UHGV virus genome: UHGV-0205084
DNA length: 5,181 nt
Direction: 5' to 3' (one strand)
Source of the DNA: a virus
Position numbers and translations under genes: made by a program. Of the stretch, positions 1,479 through 5,181 are shown piece after piece; within the stretch, counting starts at the first letter, position 1, and each line of letters begins with the position of its first letter. The notes below the pieces were generated by a model. It was not told the DNA's origin, ran no database searches, and worked only from the letters and a program-made list of their open reading frames with translations.

Positions 1479-3389
1479 ATGCCAAACCTAACTAAGTATT
1501 CACTTGACCACGAAGTTCGGTCGAGTTTTGAAATGGGTCAACTCATCCCATTTTTGTGCCAAGAGGTTGTACCAGGCGATAAGTATCGCGTGCAGTCTAG
1601 TACGCTCGTGCGTCTCCAGCCTATGTTATCCCCGCTGATGCATAGACTTGATTACTATCAAAGGTACTATTATGTGCCTTATCGTCTTCTCATACCTAAC
1701 TATGAGCAGTTACTGACAGATCCCGATAGTGGTAACACTGTTCCAGGTATGGATAAGTATCTACAATATACTGCGCATACCCTAAAGGATTTGTTCCTTG
1801 AAAAACCTCTGTTGGAGTATTTTGGTCTTGCATCGTCATTAGATGGTACTCACCCCGATAATGTGATTAAGGATCTTAATGCTACTCCTCTACTTGCTTA
1901 TTACCTTATATATAATCATTATTATATGAGGTCAGACCTTGATAAGCGTTATATTGACCAATTGCGCCCCGAAAACTTTACTAGTGCTGAGTTGCGCAAA
2001 TACATTGGTAATGTGATGTACGTTAATGAAGGACTTGATTATTTTACTTCTGCTAAGACTTCCACGCAGTACGGCAATATGGTACAGTTGGATATGGACG
2101 GCAATAATACCATTACTGTTCCTGAGATGCGTCTCGCTGAGCGTTTGCAGTCTTTCCGAGAGAGGTTGTTGAGAGTTGGTGGTAAGTACGTGAATTATAT
2201 TAAGGAGTTCTTCGGAGTCGAACCCCTTGACGCGAGAGTGCAAATACCTAAGTATCTAGGTGGTGACTCTTACGTGCTTAATGTGTCAGATGTTGACCAG
2301 ACAGCTCCCTCTGAACTTGGTTCAGTTGGTGAGAGTTATGGTAAGTCAGTGTCTGTTAATCGTACGGGTCAGATTCAATATGACGTTTACGAGCATGGTC
2401 TTATTATTGGTCTTCACTTTGTGCGCCCCCGTCCGTCAAATATAGGTGGCTGTCCTAAGCTATTTACTAGACGTACGTATTTTGATTTCTTCAATCCTCA
2501 CTTCTCCGCCTTGGGTTATCAAGAGATACAGGCGCGTGAACTTGATGTTGCACGACCAAAAGATGAAGCTTTCGGGTATGTACCGAGGTATGACGAGTAT
2601 CGTTATGGTAATGATATAGTTTCAGGTGATTTCAAGCGGTCTCTTGATTATTGGCATATGTCTAGAGATATAAGTAAGGAGAAGCTATCAGTTGACTTTG
2701 TGACTTGTCACCCAGATAATCGTGTGTTCTCGTTTCAAAATTCTAGGCCAGATCTTTGTCGTATTCAGATGACTGGTAATATCATTGGTGTTGGTGCTGT
2801 TGGTACTTCGAAGTTCTTGCTAGATGGTTATGCTTGGATTCCAAAGAGTGCTTTGACGCAAGGTTCTGATATCATGTTCTCTATTTCTAAGGAATCTATA
2901 GCTAATGATTCTAAGTTATTATTTATGGGTAAACTCTCATCTTTTCAAGATGTTGATAGTGTTAGTTTAGTTCCTGGTCGAGTTGATCAAGACTCATTAT
3001 TTTTTAATACCTGGACTAAAGGTACTGATGTGTCTAATCGGTTTGATTTGGATAGAAATACTATCATTGAGATTCACGAAGATGATTATTCAAGTAGAGC
3101 TTCATTAGGTTCTTTATCTTATATTTCCTTTGGTGGTGAGACTTATCCGTTTTTGCTTGATGTTCGTAAGACTATACAGTTAACTAATGCGATGGATTCC
3201 TCTTCTATTGCTATTTTTAATGATGGCGAGAATGGTTTTAAGCAATTAGTTTCTTTTCCTCTAGGGTTTTATACTCTTATGCCTTATGATACTGCTAAGC
3301 CTATGGATAATCACGTATTGTCTGTGACTTACAATAATGTGGACGTATTGCGTCCTCTAGCTCGTTATGACGGTAATGTGTTAAGATGA
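1479..3389 (+). CDS. Major capsid protein VP1 (phiX174 F-like) of Microviridae
   Basis: The 636-aa ORF has an N-terminal region (...FEMGQLIPFLCQEVVPGDKYRVQSSTLVRLQPMLSPLMHRLDYYQRYYYVPYRLL, aa 17-71, with the PGD at aa 32-34) that matches the conserved N-terminal beta-strand region of gokushovirus VP1. Size and position (immediately upstream of VP2) fit as well. Confidence 0.88.
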   Translation: MPNLTKYSLDHEVRSSFEMGQLIPFLCQEVVPGDKYRVQSSTLVRLQPMLSPLMHRLDYYQRYYYVPYRLLIPNYEQLLTDPDSGNTVPGMDKYLQYTAHTLKDLFLEKPLLEYFGLASSLDGTHPDNVIKDLNATPLLAYYLIYNHYYMRSDLDKRYIDQLRPENFTSAELRKYIGNVMYVNEGLDYFTSAKTSTQYGNMVQLDMDGNNTITVPEMRLAERLQSFRERLLRVGGKYVNYIKEFFGVEPLDARVQIPKYLGGDSYVLNVSDVDQTAPSELGSVGESYGKSVSVNRTGQIQYDVYEHGLIIGLHFVRPRPSNIGGCPKLFTRRTYFDFFNPHFSALGYQEIQARELDVARPKDEAFGYVPRYDEYRYGNDIVSGDFKRSLDYWHMSRDISKEKLSVDFVTCHPDNRVFSFQNSRPDLCRIQMTGNIIGVGAVGTSKFLLDGYAWIPKSALTQGSDIMFSISKESIANDSKLLFMGKLSSFQDVDSVSLVPGRVDQDSLFFNTWTKGTDVSNRFDLDRNTIIEIHEDDYSSRASLGSLSYISFGGETYPFLLDVRKTIQLTNAMDSSSIAIFNDGENGFKQLVSFPLGFYTLMPYDTAKPMDNHVLSVTYNNVDVLRPLARYDGNVLR

Positions 3390-3395
3390 TAAGTT

Positions 3396-4430
3396 ATGGA
3401 TCCCGTTACTATTGCAGGTCTTGCAGGTGCAGGCGCTAGTCTTGTCGGAGGTCTTATAAATAATGCTTGGTCTGATGCTCGTACAGAGAAACAGTACAGG
3501 CAAATGAATGAGATGCAAGATAAGATGAACGCATATAATGCGCCCGTTGCTCAAATGGCTCGCTTGCGTGCGGCTGGATTGAATCCTAATCTTGTGTATG
3601 CGAATGGTGGTGCTGTTATGCAGTCCGCTGTCGGTAATGCTCCGAACCCTCCTAACTCTGCCCCGATTGACACTCAGGGAGTGTTACAGATGGTGCAGAC
3701 GATTGTCGGTGGTATGCTAGAAAAGGATAAGATACAAGCTCAGAAAGATATGCAGTCAGAGCAGATTACTGCTAATAAGGATTTGCAGACTGAGAAGATT
3801 ACTGCCGATAAGGATATGCAGTCTACTCAGATTGGTGCAACTAAGGATTTACAGACTGAGCAGATTACTGCTAATAAAGAGATGCAAAAAACTCAGATTG
3901 ATTCAACTGAAAAGATTGCTTCTGAGAATCGTGCTGAAAACGCTCGTCAGTTTGATTTGTCTTTTGAACAGCAGAAGCGTGTTGATGCTATGCGTTTATC
4001 TATTGATAGGAGTTTGGCAAATTCTCAAATAGCTTTGCATTCTTCTCAAATTGAGATTAATCGTTTGTCTGCTAATTTGTCTCGCCAGCTTGAACCTTTT
4101 TTGGTTGATAAGGCTAAGTTAGATTCTTTGTCTTCTCAGTTTTCTTTTAGTAATGAAAAGTTAGAGACTTTTCTTTCTCGTCCGTATGAGATTTCAGTTA
4201 CTGATTTAGAGAACGCTTATAAAGATGCTGGTTTGTCTGTTCCTAGTGCTTTTGGATTGTCTCAAATGGTAGATTATCATAATGAGGCCGTTAAAGCTTG
4301 GAATCAAGAAGTTAAAACTAATAGGACAAAACTTTCTGATGATGAGTTTTATTCTGGTTGGATGCATCTTTGGAATGCTATTTCTGCTCCTACTCAGATG
4401 GCTACTTCTTTGCTTTTCAAGAAGAAGTAG
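3396..4430 (+). CDS. Minor capsid / DNA pilot protein VP2 (phiX174 H-like)
   Basis: The N-terminus is Gly/Ala-rich and hydrophobic (AGLAGAGASLVGGLI, aa 7-21). The hallmark AQMARLRAAGLNPNLVY (AAGLNP at aa 59-64, nt 3570-3587) is found in Microviridae VP2 proteins. A central tandem 11-aa repeat predicted to form a coiled coil resembles the phiX174 H tube domain. The ORF sits immediately downstream of VP1. Confidence 0.8.
   Translation: MDPVTIAGLAGAGASLVGGLINNAWSDARTEKQYRQMNEMQDKMNAYNAPVAQMARLRAAGLNPNLVYANGGAVMQSAVGNAPNPPNSAPIDTQGVLQMVQTIVGGMLEKDKIQAQKDMQSEQITANKDLQTEKITADKDMQSTQIGATKDLQTEQITANKEMQKTQIDSTEKIASENRAENARQFDLSFEQQKRVDAMRLSIDRSLANSQIALHSSQIEINRLSANLSRQLEPFLVDKAKLDSLSSQFSFSNEKLETFLSRPYEISVTDLENAYKDAGLSVPSAFGLSQMVDYHNEAVKAWNQEVKTNRTKLSDDEFYSGWMHLWNAISAPTQMATSLLFKKK
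3747..3911 (+). repeat. Five tandem 33-nt repeats (hendecad 11-aa units DMQSEQITANK / DLQTEKITADK / DMQSTQIGATK / DLQTEQITANK / EMQKTQIDSTE) inside VP2, with degenerate flanking copies extending to about 3723..3941
   Basis: Direct reading. Units are 3747-3779, 3780-3812, 3813-3845, 3846-3878 and 3879-3911. Unit 1 and unit 4 are 28/33 nt identical. Odd and even units alternate (gatatgcagtc... versus gatttgcagactgag...), which suggests a duplicated 66-nt higher-order unit. Confidence 0.9.
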
Positions 4431-4462: not shown

Positions 4463-4603
4463 ATGAATATATTTATCAACTATGTTCTTTATCCCTTGTT
4501 GGTGATATTTTGGTTCCTTGTATTCGTATGGCTTGTTTTGCTTCTTGCAAGGTCTATATGTCGTATTATTAAACAATTTCGTAATGGAAAAGAGAAGTTA
4601 TAA
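4463..4603 (+). CDS. Small hypothetical membrane protein (46 aa): MNIFINYVLYPLLVIFWFLVFVWLVLLLARSICRIIKQFRNGKEKL. One transmembrane helix followed by a basic C-terminal tail. Candidate lysis/holin-like protein
   Basis: First ATG after the VP2 stop (4428-4430) in the frame that the track lists as 4358..4603. It occupies the otherwise unexplained 150-nt VP2-VP3 gap and overlaps the VP3-like start by about 20 nt. Caveat: the region is T-rich, so hydrophobic translations appear in more than one frame. Confidence 0.35.
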   Translation: MNIFINYVLYPLLVIFWFLVFVWLVLLLARSICRIIKQFRNGKEKL

Positions 4604-4880
4604 GTATGTGGCTCGTGTGCCACAGAGTGTAGTGTCTGACACTTTACCGAATCAGACTGTAGACTTGTCTGTACTTGTTAAGCAGTTAATGGACGGTCAA
4701 GCACTTAATGTTGGATTATCATTGTCTGAGGACACTTCGGACACTCTAGACACTCCAGATATTACTAAGTATGATTTCCGTCATATGACAGTATCTGATG
4801 TAGATAATCTATTGTCTAAGGTTCAGCCGGTGCAGGTTGATGTGCCAGCTGAGACCGGTACGGCTCCCGTAGCCGATTGA
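4584..4880 (+). CDS. Putative internal scaffolding protein (VP3-like), acidic, 98 aa from ATG 4584. The track's longer version starts at TTG 4518
   Basis: Position after VP2 matches the gokushovirus VP1-VP2-VP3 order. It is acidic (D/E-rich: SEDTSDTLDTPDITKYDF...), as scaffolding proteins are. The first in-frame ATG is at 4584 (MEKRSYKYVARV...), whereas the track start at 4518 is a TTG. I do not recognise any sequence motif, so the call rests on position and composition only. Confidence 0.4.
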   Translation: MEKRSYKYVARVPQSVVSDTLPNQTVDLSVLVKQLMDGQALNVGLSLSEDTSDTLDTPDITKYDFRHMTVSDVDNLLSKVQPVQVDVPAETGTAPVAD

Positions 4881-4890
4881 TATTAATGGG
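4875..4890 (+). promoter_or_regulatory. Candidate (+)-strand replication origin nick site: gattgatattaatggg contains TTGATATTAAT, identical to the core of the phiX174 gpA cleavage site (CAACTTG^ATATTAATAAC)
   Basis: Exact 11-nt identity at 4877-4887 to the phiX174 origin as I remember it. It overlaps the VP3-like stop codon (TGA 4878-4880) and sits at the 5' edge of the structured intergenic region. The predicted nick would fall between G4879 and A4880. Confidence 0.4.
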
Positions 4891-4989
4891 TGCGGGGGCT
4901 GATGGCTTGTCCATTGCCCCCCTCACCTCTTTTGAGGTGGGGGCAATGGCATTTTGCCGAACCAGTCCTTCGGACTGCCCCCCCGCCCG
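4888..4989 (+). repeat. GC-rich island with nested inverted repeats built from four homopolymer tracts: G5 (4894-4898), C6 (4917-4922), G5 (4939-4943) and C7 (4978-4984). An outer imperfect stem (gggtgcgggggc 4888-4899 with gcccccccgcccg 4977-4989) encloses the 4911-4949 hairpin and a 6-bp hairpin cagtcc-ttc-ggactg (4963-4977)
   Basis: Direct reading. About 10 of 12 positions of the outer arms are complementary. The G and C tracts can also pair in the alternative register G5(4894) with C6(4917) and G5(4939) with C7(4978). Confidence 0.6.
4911..4956 (+). terminator. GC-rich hairpin (16 bp with a 3-nt bulge, TTTT loop) followed by cATTTTg. Possible intrinsic terminator after the VP3-like gene and/or ssDNA structural element
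   Basis: Left arm ccattgcccccctcacctc (4911-4929), loop tttt (4930-4933), right arm gaggtgggggcaatgg (4934-4949), T-run 4952-4955. Pairing was verified base by base. Confidence 0.45.
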
Positions 4990-5009
4990 TTAATTATCAC
5001 GAGAGAGCA

Positions 5010-5040
5010 GGCGATTACTCTTACTTGACATGTAATCGCC
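5010..5040 (+). promoter_or_regulatory. Perfect 9-bp inverted repeat ggcgattac / gtaatcgcc with a 13-nt loop tcttacttgacat carrying a consensus -35 hexamer TTGACA (5025-5030). Possible Rep promoter or operator element
   Basis: Arms are 5010-5018 and 5032-5040, verified base by base. No well-spaced TATAAT follows; the nearest -10-like hexamers are tgtaat at 5031-5036 (wrong spacing) and tatatt at 5061-5066. The promoter role is therefore tentative. Confidence 0.3.
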
Positions 5041-5181
5041 AAGTGACACCACGATACAAATATATTGTGGTGTTGTCTCTCTAAATAATTTGTAGTACAT
5101 TTGTGCCAGAGCTAGGTAACAATTCATTCTTAAATTTATTGATGCCTGCTTTTGGACTAAACGTATAACTCATTCTGACAA

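Follow-up and report, generated by a model that had tools for sequence, protein, structure and literature searches.

A copy-number-variable hendecad array in the VP2 pilot protein of a microvirus and its likeness to the phiX174 H coiled coil

Virus UHGV-0205084 has a complete circular microvirus genome of 5,181 bases (∼5.2 kb), which was analysed at its full length and is referred to here as the window, and its VP2 DNA pilot protein contains an array of tandem 11-residue repeats that is the subject of this analysis. The explanation that is preferred, with a probability of about 0.7, is that the array constitutes the hendecad section of a coiled coil similar to that of the phiX174 H protein, and that it is variable in copy number within a Porphyromonas-associated clade. 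A hendecad comprises 11 residues per three helical turns. The occurrence of coiled coils in VP2 and H (PMC3091885) and the three hendecads of H (PMC7354561) are known already, whereas the searchable literature, in which only work on phiX174 H was found, contained no account of a pilot protein with a tandem hendecad array that varies in copy number.

The array and its variation among relatives

The VP2 gene occupies positions 3396..4430 of the plus strand, on which all of the features described below for this gene lie, and encodes a protein of 344 amino acids, as delimited from a list of open reading frames (ORFs), matches to PHROG families and the annotation of GenBank orthologues. Its assignment in the preliminary description as a pilot protein gene was upheld: the protein matches five PHROG families of the type 'pilot protein for DNA ejection' (best phrog_8689, E=8e-17; the others include phrog_31272, phrog_8693 and phrog_11693), and five GenBank microviruses of human-sample origin, which are 81-88% DNA-identical to the window, carry the annotation 'DNA pilot protein' on the orthologous gene. 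The variable array, defined by Tandem Repeats Finder (TRF), a unit matrix and a shuffle test, consists of five overt tandem units of 33 nt or 11 residues (u1-u5) at 3744..3908. Immediately upstream is the anchor EKDKIQAQ (residues 109-116, 3720..3743), which includes a partial unit of seven residues, KDKIQAQ (3723-3743), and in which E109, K110, D111, I113 and A115 are invariant among 76 homologs. A sixth hendecad, EKIASENRAEN (3909..3941), which is conserved, not repeat-like and in register, ends the array and is followed by the downstream anchor ARQFD (residues 183-187, 3942..3956), in which R184 and Q185 are invariant. Within the sixth hendecad the window and the five GenBank relatives agree without exception at I174, N178, R179, E181 and N182, and among the 76 homologs I174 is nearly invariant and E181 invariant.

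TRF detected the array with a period of 33 (3747-3886, 4.2 copies, 71% matches) and with a period of 66 (3744-3908, 2.5 copies, 78% matches), the scores of the two calls being 154 and 197. With 3744 as the start of the register, the units read KDMQSEQITAN, KDLQTEKITAD, KDMQSTQIGAT, KDLQTEQITAN, KEMQKTQIDST and EKIASENRAEN, or four clean units, one diverged and one degenerate. Maximum identity was 0.68 at a lag of 33 nt and 0.79 at a lag of 66 nt, compared with a mean of 0.395 (sd 0.026, maximum 0.51) in 1000 codon shuffles; the repeats are located where they had been placed previously and are far above chance. The earlier count of 28/33 identical nucleotides between units 1 and 4 was confirmed, the best pair being units 2 and 4 with 29/33. 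Other elements of the preliminary description required revision. Four units, as opposed to five, fit the clean consensus, with the fifth deviating at four positions; the units are not near-identical, the real nucleotide identity among units 1-5 being 52-88%; and the alternation of odd and even units, although real, is not clean, in that units 1 and 2 share 26/33 nucleotides and units 1 and 3 share 24/33.

At positions where the units are identical in amino acid, they used the same codon in 43/60 pairwise comparisons, whereas the codon usage of the genome predicts 29.4, indicating that the units share descent by DNA duplication and not by convergence at the protein level alone. A recent 66-nt duplication in the window had also been proposed, but the units proved to be orthologous position by position across relatives: those of the window are closest to the units at the same position in L008, L009, L007 and L012 (30-33/33 nucleotides), whereas their own neighbours reach at most 29/33. 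The five-unit arrangement is therefore older than the split of genomes that are only ∼85% DNA-identical. Recent duplication was observed elsewhere, units 1 and 3 of OP549878 (L001) being identical (33/33). Unit 4 of the relative L011 (KDLQTEQITST) was considered as a recombinant of units 4 and 5, a case that is suggestive only and lacks a clear crossover point.

The spacing between two anchors, EKD.I.A and RQ[FA][DN], served to compare copy number across the window and 120 homologs from the database, with both anchors present in 119. The spacing was 53, 64, 75, 86 or 97 residues in 119/119 homologs, always 9 modulo 11, and the number of hendecads per protein was four (n=2), five (n=45), six (n=52), seven (n=19) or eight (n=1), the window having six. 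Copy number thus varies among relatives, as had been predicted, from 4 to 8 units in the 119 homologs compared. Unit number differs in 88 of the 375 pairs in which both 60-residue flanks are at least 90% identical. Some changes in unit number are recent. For example, P0080 and P0083 have flanks that are 100% identical and six and seven units, respectively, the extra unit being ERNVDVQTKSS; P0004 and P0012 are 98% identical and have six and four units, the difference being one 22-residue double unit; and in P0107 and P0111 (97% identical, six and five units) a single EGMQEKSIQSQ unit makes the difference. Independent expansion has affected no fewer than four unit types, namely KD[ML]Q.., EGMQEKSIQSQ, ERNVDVQTKSS and a 22-mer. 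The array is, by the presence of head-to-tail DNA repeats above chance and of copy-number polymorphism between close alleles, a coding variable number tandem repeat (VNTR).

Entirely different arrays were also found between flanks that are 96-97% identical (P0038/P0080 and P0109/P0111), a difference that suggests cassette-like recombination. No other part of VP2 varies as much as the array, for which the median pairwise identity is 0.36; the 60-residue flanks reach 0.88 (upstream) and 0.68 (downstream). Divergent as it is, the array was free of out-of-register indels in all of the 119 homologs, whereas the C-terminal domain has indels of 7, 1 and 3 residues, which argues for selection on helical register in addition to a mutational mechanism that operates on whole units. 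Among 145 distant VP2 representatives that share the N-terminal domain, overt repeats at a lag of 11 residues were found only in the two nearest outgroups (P0121 and P0146), indicating that the overt array is clade-specific.

The structural context of the array was examined with AlphaFold2 (AF2), which, with an alignment of 76 sequences, predicted a single continuous alpha-helix over residues 93-246 (154 residues, 3672..4133). The highest values of the predicted local distance difference test (pLDDT), 82-90, were obtained over residues 110-190, corresponding to the array, and the remainder of VP2 was poorly modelled (mean pLDDT 62); the repeats accordingly fall within a long helix that is predicted with confidence in the monomer. 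A Foldseek search of the PDB with the VP2 model returned no match at E<=0.001, a lone long helix being uninformative for a fold search. Periodicity was assessed with a phase-count test, which was used in place of a hydrophobic-moment spectrum. Residues 116-203 (3741..4004) form a hendecad-phased (modulus-11) region of eight units, comprising the array and two non-repeat units, in which strongly hydrophobic residues occupy positions 4 and 9 in 7/8 units each; the modulus-11 statistic was reached by 0/5000 shuffles and no modulus-7 signal was present. Residues 204-262 (4005..4181) are heptad-phased (modulus-7), one phase being hydrophobic in 8/8 heptads (L, L, I, L, F, L, F, L), with the modulus-7 statistic reached by 4/5000 shuffles and no modulus-11 signal. 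These phase counts indicate that the helix consists of a hendecad section followed by a heptad section.

Likeness to the phiX174 H tube

The tube formed by phiX174 H comprises three hendecads (QKELTKMQLDN, QKEIAEMQNET and QKEIAGIQSAT), a kinked transition of 11 residues and eleven heptads, and 18/23 of its lumen-facing residues are Gln, Asn or Arg (PMC7354561). When a VP2 profile built from 76 homologs was compared with the 177,635 distinct sequences of the PDB, the H coiled coil provided the two best matches, 4JPN (E=6.6e-4) and 4JPP (E=9e-3), with Q116 of the window aligned to Q151 of H, the first residue of the first H hendecad. Comparison of the VP2 family with the H fragment by hhalign gave a probability of 74.5% (E=2.7e-5) over the same columns as the profile match. 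Additionally, a scoring matrix built solely from 264 distinct units of the VP2 family located the three H hendecads, at Q151, Q162 and Q173, in their crystallographic register with 34 bits, compared with a maximum of -11.6 for shuffled controls and values below -4 for 143/145 other VP2 representatives. The likeness to the H tube that had been predicted previously is hence supported by a specific, in-register alignment of the array with the H hendecads by the profile, hhalign and the scoring matrix. Sun and co-workers are said to have described, in 2014, the section of the decameric H tube with the hendecads as right-handed.

The logo of the family units shows N or Q at position 1, K or E at 2, E or D at 3, I, M, V or L at 4 (91% hydrophobic), A, Q or T at 5, Q, R, N or K at 8 and S or T at 11, in agreement with the H hendecad QKEIAEMQNET. 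Hydrophobic residues are absent (0%) from positions 1 and 8, where Q/N account for 52% and 48%, respectively, and position 8 is Q, N, R, K or H in 84%. When a unit is drawn as an 11/3 helical wheel, a polar stripe rich in amides is formed by positions 8, 1 and 5, and is bordered by position 4 (together with position 11) and, at its opposite edge, by position 9, a pattern that would be expected of a barrel helix that touches two neighbours around a polar lumen.

VP2 of the window and H are alike in being pilot proteins encoded beside a capsid gene, in having hendecads and then heptads in one long helix, and in the hendecad pattern Q/N-K-E/D-hydrophobic-small-x-x-Q/R/N-x-x-S/T. They differ in number, with three hendecads in H and eight hendecad-phased units here (4-8 in the variable array), and in the second hydrophobic position, which is 7 in H and 9 in the window family. 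The array is probably the homologous counterpart of H hendecads 1-3. No report of polymorphism in hendecad number in H was found, and a survey of H homologs was swamped by phiX174 control fragments, in that nearly all of the best 120 of 3,558 matches had 84% identity or more to phiX174, and most were fragments or chimeras. The protein database is rich in such fragmentary, chimeric or error-laden copies of phiX174 H (P0266-P0385), evidently from its use as a sequencing-control spike-in, with matches numbering in the thousands.

Other systems offer partial parallels. The residue length of tape-measure proteins, which are long and helical, such as gpH of lambda, sets the size of a DNA-delivery structure that is scaled by in-frame indels, the ruler function being demonstrated; the similarity to the VP2 array is one of functional analogy only, without homology, and a ruler role for VP2 is hypothesised. 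DNA tandem repeats also encode the coiled-coil units of streptococcal M proteins and of trimeric autotransporter stalks, in which copy number and sequence are hypervariable and register is kept, although these are bacterial adhesins under immune selection as opposed to an internal virion protein of a 5-kb single-stranded DNA phage. The array (3729-3884, residues 112-163) gave a sub-threshold Pfam match (E=0.007, 16.8 bits vs a cutoff of 27) to PF03035, which we take to be the calicivirus VP2/ORF3 family; the match is probably compositional and no relationship is claimed. Calicivirus VP2 is a minor capsid protein that forms an alpha-helical, portal-like conduit lined with amide and guanidinium side chains (PMC7354561). 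Closer at hand, the VP2 proteins of Gokushovirinae and Alpavirinae, including the Bacteroidales proviruses BMV1-7, share with that of the window the VP1-VP2-VP4 gene order, an N-terminal hydrophobic segment with a predicted coiled coil (PMC3091885), and occurrence in proviruses of Bacteroidales that lack an integrase. For these proteins the searchable literature notes just 'coiled-coil regions', and no overt tandem hendecad array or copy-number variation was found there.

Proposed mechanism and alternative explanations

In the mechanism that is proposed, the array section of the long coiled-coil helix would correspond to the N-terminal part of the H DNA-delivery tube. Units would be gained, lost, homogenised and exchanged in DNA, through slippage between the 33-nt and 66-nt repeats or their unequal recombination, and only changes of whole units would survive, because other indels would rotate the downstream face of the helix and break helix-helix packing. 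Each unit would lengthen the helix by ∼16 Å (11 residues at 1.4-1.5 Å per residue, from the 170 Å of H over 121 residues), and the range of 4-8 units would span ∼65 Å. The lumen would be lined by Gln, Asn, Arg and Lys at positions 1, 5 and 8, and the number of units could feasibly have functional meaning or set the span of envelope that is crossed. A further extension, in which the array is an evolvable molecular ruler that tunes conduit length to the envelope or periplasm of particular Bacteroidales hosts, with array exchange as a mechanism of host range or defence evasion, is speculative and considered rather unlikely.

Several observations weigh against an H-like coiled coil in VP2. The likeness to H is modest (E ∼1e-3 to 1e-5, 74.5%), and coiled-coil composition can inflate scores of this kind between sequences; a phmmer search of the PDB with the single VP2 sequence gave no match at E<=10, and only the family profile reached H. 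Pfam Microvir_H (PF04687), the H family of Bullavirinae, did not match VP2 at E<=0.1, indicating that VP2 belongs to the wider VP2/H group and not to the H family sensu stricto. The hydrophobic-moment spectrum (periods 3.0-4.2) has no peak at 3.67 in the array, a weakness that is explained by the two hydrophobic positions being ∼130° apart and flanking the polar stripe. With only two strongly hydrophobic residues per unit, the array is compatible both with a two-seam barrel and with a single helix exposed to solvent. For the eight-unit variant P0119, the AF2 model had a pLDDT of <50 over the array and a 10-residue break at 155-164, probably owing to a gap-rich alignment in this region. The quantisation in steps of 11 residues could stem in part from a mutational mechanism, namely whole-unit slippage, instead of selection. 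Lastly, the assembly of the VP2 helix into an H-like multimeric DNA tube is something that we infer, and cryo-electron tomography of Ebor, a microvirus outside the Bullavirinae, revealed no pilot tube spanning the periplasm (PMC11980548).

Differences in unit number between otherwise identical proteins, the existence of perfect 33-nt duplicates (units 1 and 3 of L001, 33/33) and the coexistence of four unit counts within one clade are all consistent with a neutral, slippage-prone VNTR in a permissive helical spacer, in which unit number drifts by replication slippage on the ssDNA/RF genome and multiples of 11 reflect the size of the DNA unit, unit number having no adaptive meaning. This explanation is possible, if on the unlikely side, since arrays that are too diverged for slippage (median 0.36) are still devoid of indels of 1-10 residues in 119 proteins, the adjacent C-terminal domain does carry such indels, and the position-specific pattern is kept across all unit types. 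Alternatively, the array might be a hypervariable cassette under diversifying selection, exposed to a putative host factor, periplasmic or in the membrane, or to a defence system, and diversified by recombination and turnover of units, for which the hendecad frame is a required scaffold. Such a role would be in keeping with its being the most variable segment of the protein (0.36 vs 0.88 and 0.68), with the wholly different arrays between the 96-97% identical flanks of P0038/P0080 and P0109/P0111, and with heavy immunisation of the hosts against this virus family, seen in 21/29 spacers of one array of clustered regularly interspaced short palindromic repeats (CRISPR). It is nonetheless regarded as doubtful, given that CRISPR targets DNA and not protein, and that the variability may simply stem from weak constraint on outward-facing positions. 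Both of these explanations are compatible with the structural interpretation. A low-order coiled coil or single-alpha-helix stalk, located inside the capsid and concerned with spacing or DNA organisation as opposed to forming a DNA conduit, would account for the charged or polar units (K, D/E, Q, T), the sparse hydrophobics and the weak 3.67 moment, which resemble those of stable single helices, and for the fact that no tube was seen in Ebor (PMC11980548). Little weight is given to such a stalk, however, as the in-register likeness is specific to the H tube hendecads and not to coiled coils in general, the hendecad-to-heptad architecture is shared with H, and positions 1 and 8 are rich in amide or guanidinium groups, as in the lumen of H (PMC7354561).

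Two further explanations concern the origin of the repeats. An alternative-frame ORF of 66 residues, with a TTG start and a Leu/Arg-rich product, is located at 3832..4032 of the plus strand. Overlapping genes are common in Microviridae, which counts towards the repeat existing in order to encode this ORF, as does the 103-codon open frame that spans the array; the notion is nevertheless highly improbable. The stop-free run of 103 codons is not significantly longer than the 69±21 codons obtained by synonymous resampling (p≈0.07), the limits of the open frame vary from 54 to 147 codons among relatives, no Shine-Dalgarno-like motif was obvious by eye in the 26 nt upstream of the TTG start (no formal scan was run), and a low-complexity, Leu/Arg-rich product is a trivial consequence of the repeat. 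The ORF was consequently rejected as a gene, on the grounds of run length and shifting boundaries, and is judged to be a spurious by-product of the repeat, in line with the preliminary description. Finally, tandem repeats are prone to mis-assembly, but the idea that the array was made or collapsed by an assembly or sequencing artefact is scarcely credible: the same six-unit array occurs in independent assemblies (P0001/L008 from Logan; L013 from a bin labelled uncultured Porphyromonas sp.; and L009 from ENA), typical read pairs are longer than the array (165 nt), and its reading frame is never broken.

An H-like, copy-number-variable hendecad section in VP2 would have several implications. The clade provides evolutionary evidence that a VP2 from a Bacteroidales microvirus keeps an H-like coiled coil of hendecads and then heptads, and the absolute conservation of register in 119 proteins, in which sequence and length are free, is as would be predicted from helix packing in an oligomer. 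The manner in which microvirus DNA crosses the envelope outside the phiX174 group is an unsettled question, and the relatives, with their 4 to 8 units, form an allelic series provided by nature, in which some pairs are otherwise identical; were the array to act as a ruler, this natural variation would be a genetic handle on whether microviruses outside the Bullavirinae build a tube that spans the periplasm. At a practical level, the 11-residue quantisation could be used to flag mis-assembly or frameshifts in the annotation of VP2 from gut, oral and vaginal microviruses.

Other features of VP2 and of the genome

An N-terminal transmembrane segment together with a coiled-coil region is a hallmark of VP2/H proteins (PMC3091885). 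VP2 of the window conforms to it with a hydrophobic N-terminus and the predicted helix of 154 residues, as judged by composition and AF2. The N-terminus (residues 1-26, 3396..3473; MDPVTIAGLAGAGASLVGGLINNAW) is rich in Gly and Ala and is a putative membrane-inserting segment, in which G11, G13, G18 and G19 are invariant among the 76 homologs. A conserved core motif, MQDKMNAYNAPVAQMARLRAAGLNPNLVY (residues 40-68, 3513..3599), follows, with nearly all positions invariant in the same homologs, and the N-terminal 116 residues match 4,726 proteins at E<=0.001 in a search of 1.84 billion representatives.

Elsewhere in the window, the Rep gene lies at 1-939 (REP_ORF2-G2P, phrog_942), a conserved endolysin-like ORF of 132 residues at 1077-1475 (phrog_873, E=3.4e-25; no Pfam match) and the major capsid protein gene at 1479-3389 (Phage_F, E=3.6e-56). 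The genes are arranged VP1-VP2-VP4, with VP2 directly 3' of the major capsid gene. A small ORF at 942-1070, encoding 42 residues (MKLSNRKVGFFARLRKFRIPVLLLLLAVVVVCVAFGWFSFLV) with a basic N-terminus and one hydrophobic helix, falls below the 50-residue cutoff of the ORF list; it is directly 5' of the endolysin-like ORF, and the DNA of both was found at the same position in 10/10 relatives inspected. The two ORFs are a possible holin-endolysin lysis cassette. Downstream of VP2, the ORF at 4518-4880 (120 residues, TTG start) is without a family match, and relatives have a hypothetical protein of 98-128 residues at this location; within it, a 9-nt tandem repeat, GACACTCCA, is present in 3.2 copies at 4731-4759 and encodes the acidic sequence DTSDTLDTPD. 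The non-coding region at 4881-5181 is GC-rich (55.5% at 4801-5000 vs 30-47% elsewhere) and contains stem-loops at 4911-4921/4939-4949 (11 bp, perfect), 5010-5018/5032-5040 and 5046-5056/5063-5073. The region may hold an origin or regulatory region, and the ORF listed at 4890-5084 is probably not a gene.

Close relatives of the virus are integrated as proviruses in bacterial contigs. The VP2 of one of these (L013) is 96% identical and is encoded on a contig of 40 kb that belongs to a bin labelled uncultured Porphyromonas sp. UMGS166, and a second provirus adjoins a Bacteroidales fimbrillin gene. The host of the window virus is therefore likely to be a Gram-negative, Porphyromonas-like member of the Bacteroidales. 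No integrase gene was present in the provirus relatives (L006, L007, L011 and L013 junctions). The viral crossover is always within ...TTTGGACTAAACNTATAACTCATTCT(GA), just 5' of the Rep ATG (5151-5181 plus position 1 of the window), and an imperfect direct copy of this ∼26-nt motif lies on each side of the L011 provirus, which suggests a dif-like site and Xer-type integration. Integration of the latter type has been proposed for Bacteroidales microviruses (PMC3091885).

In one assembly (L009), a complete relative of the window virus (1176-6381) appears to reside within a type I-C CRISPR array (837-8107) that has 31 copies of the repeat GTTTCAATTCACGCACCCCGTGTGGGGTGCGAC and adjoins cas2-cas1-cas4-cas7-csd1. 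The virus splits a single 34-nt spacer, the halves of which, GATACTTACAAGTATTCATAAGGCATCAT and ACTAA, lie on either side of it, and the intact spacer matches the minus strand of the same virus family at the start of ORF2. The same right junction is found in L010 at 4699-4760, in a second assembly from a different sample, and a k-mer assembly chimera is unlikely because only 4 nt (TCAT) are shared at the L009 crossover. Among the spacers of the L009 array (6417-8067), 21/29 match the microvirus family, with TTC (27 matches) or TTT (14) as the predominant protospacer adjacent motif (PAM), in accordance with type I-C. The adjacent provirus is matched at 34/34 positions, with a TTC PAM, by the spacer at 6823-6856, an apparent case of self-targeting. 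Spacer matches in the window itself are located at 61-93, 2809-2842 and 3687-3720, the last of these, from one spacer, being in VP2 just 5' of the hendecad array.

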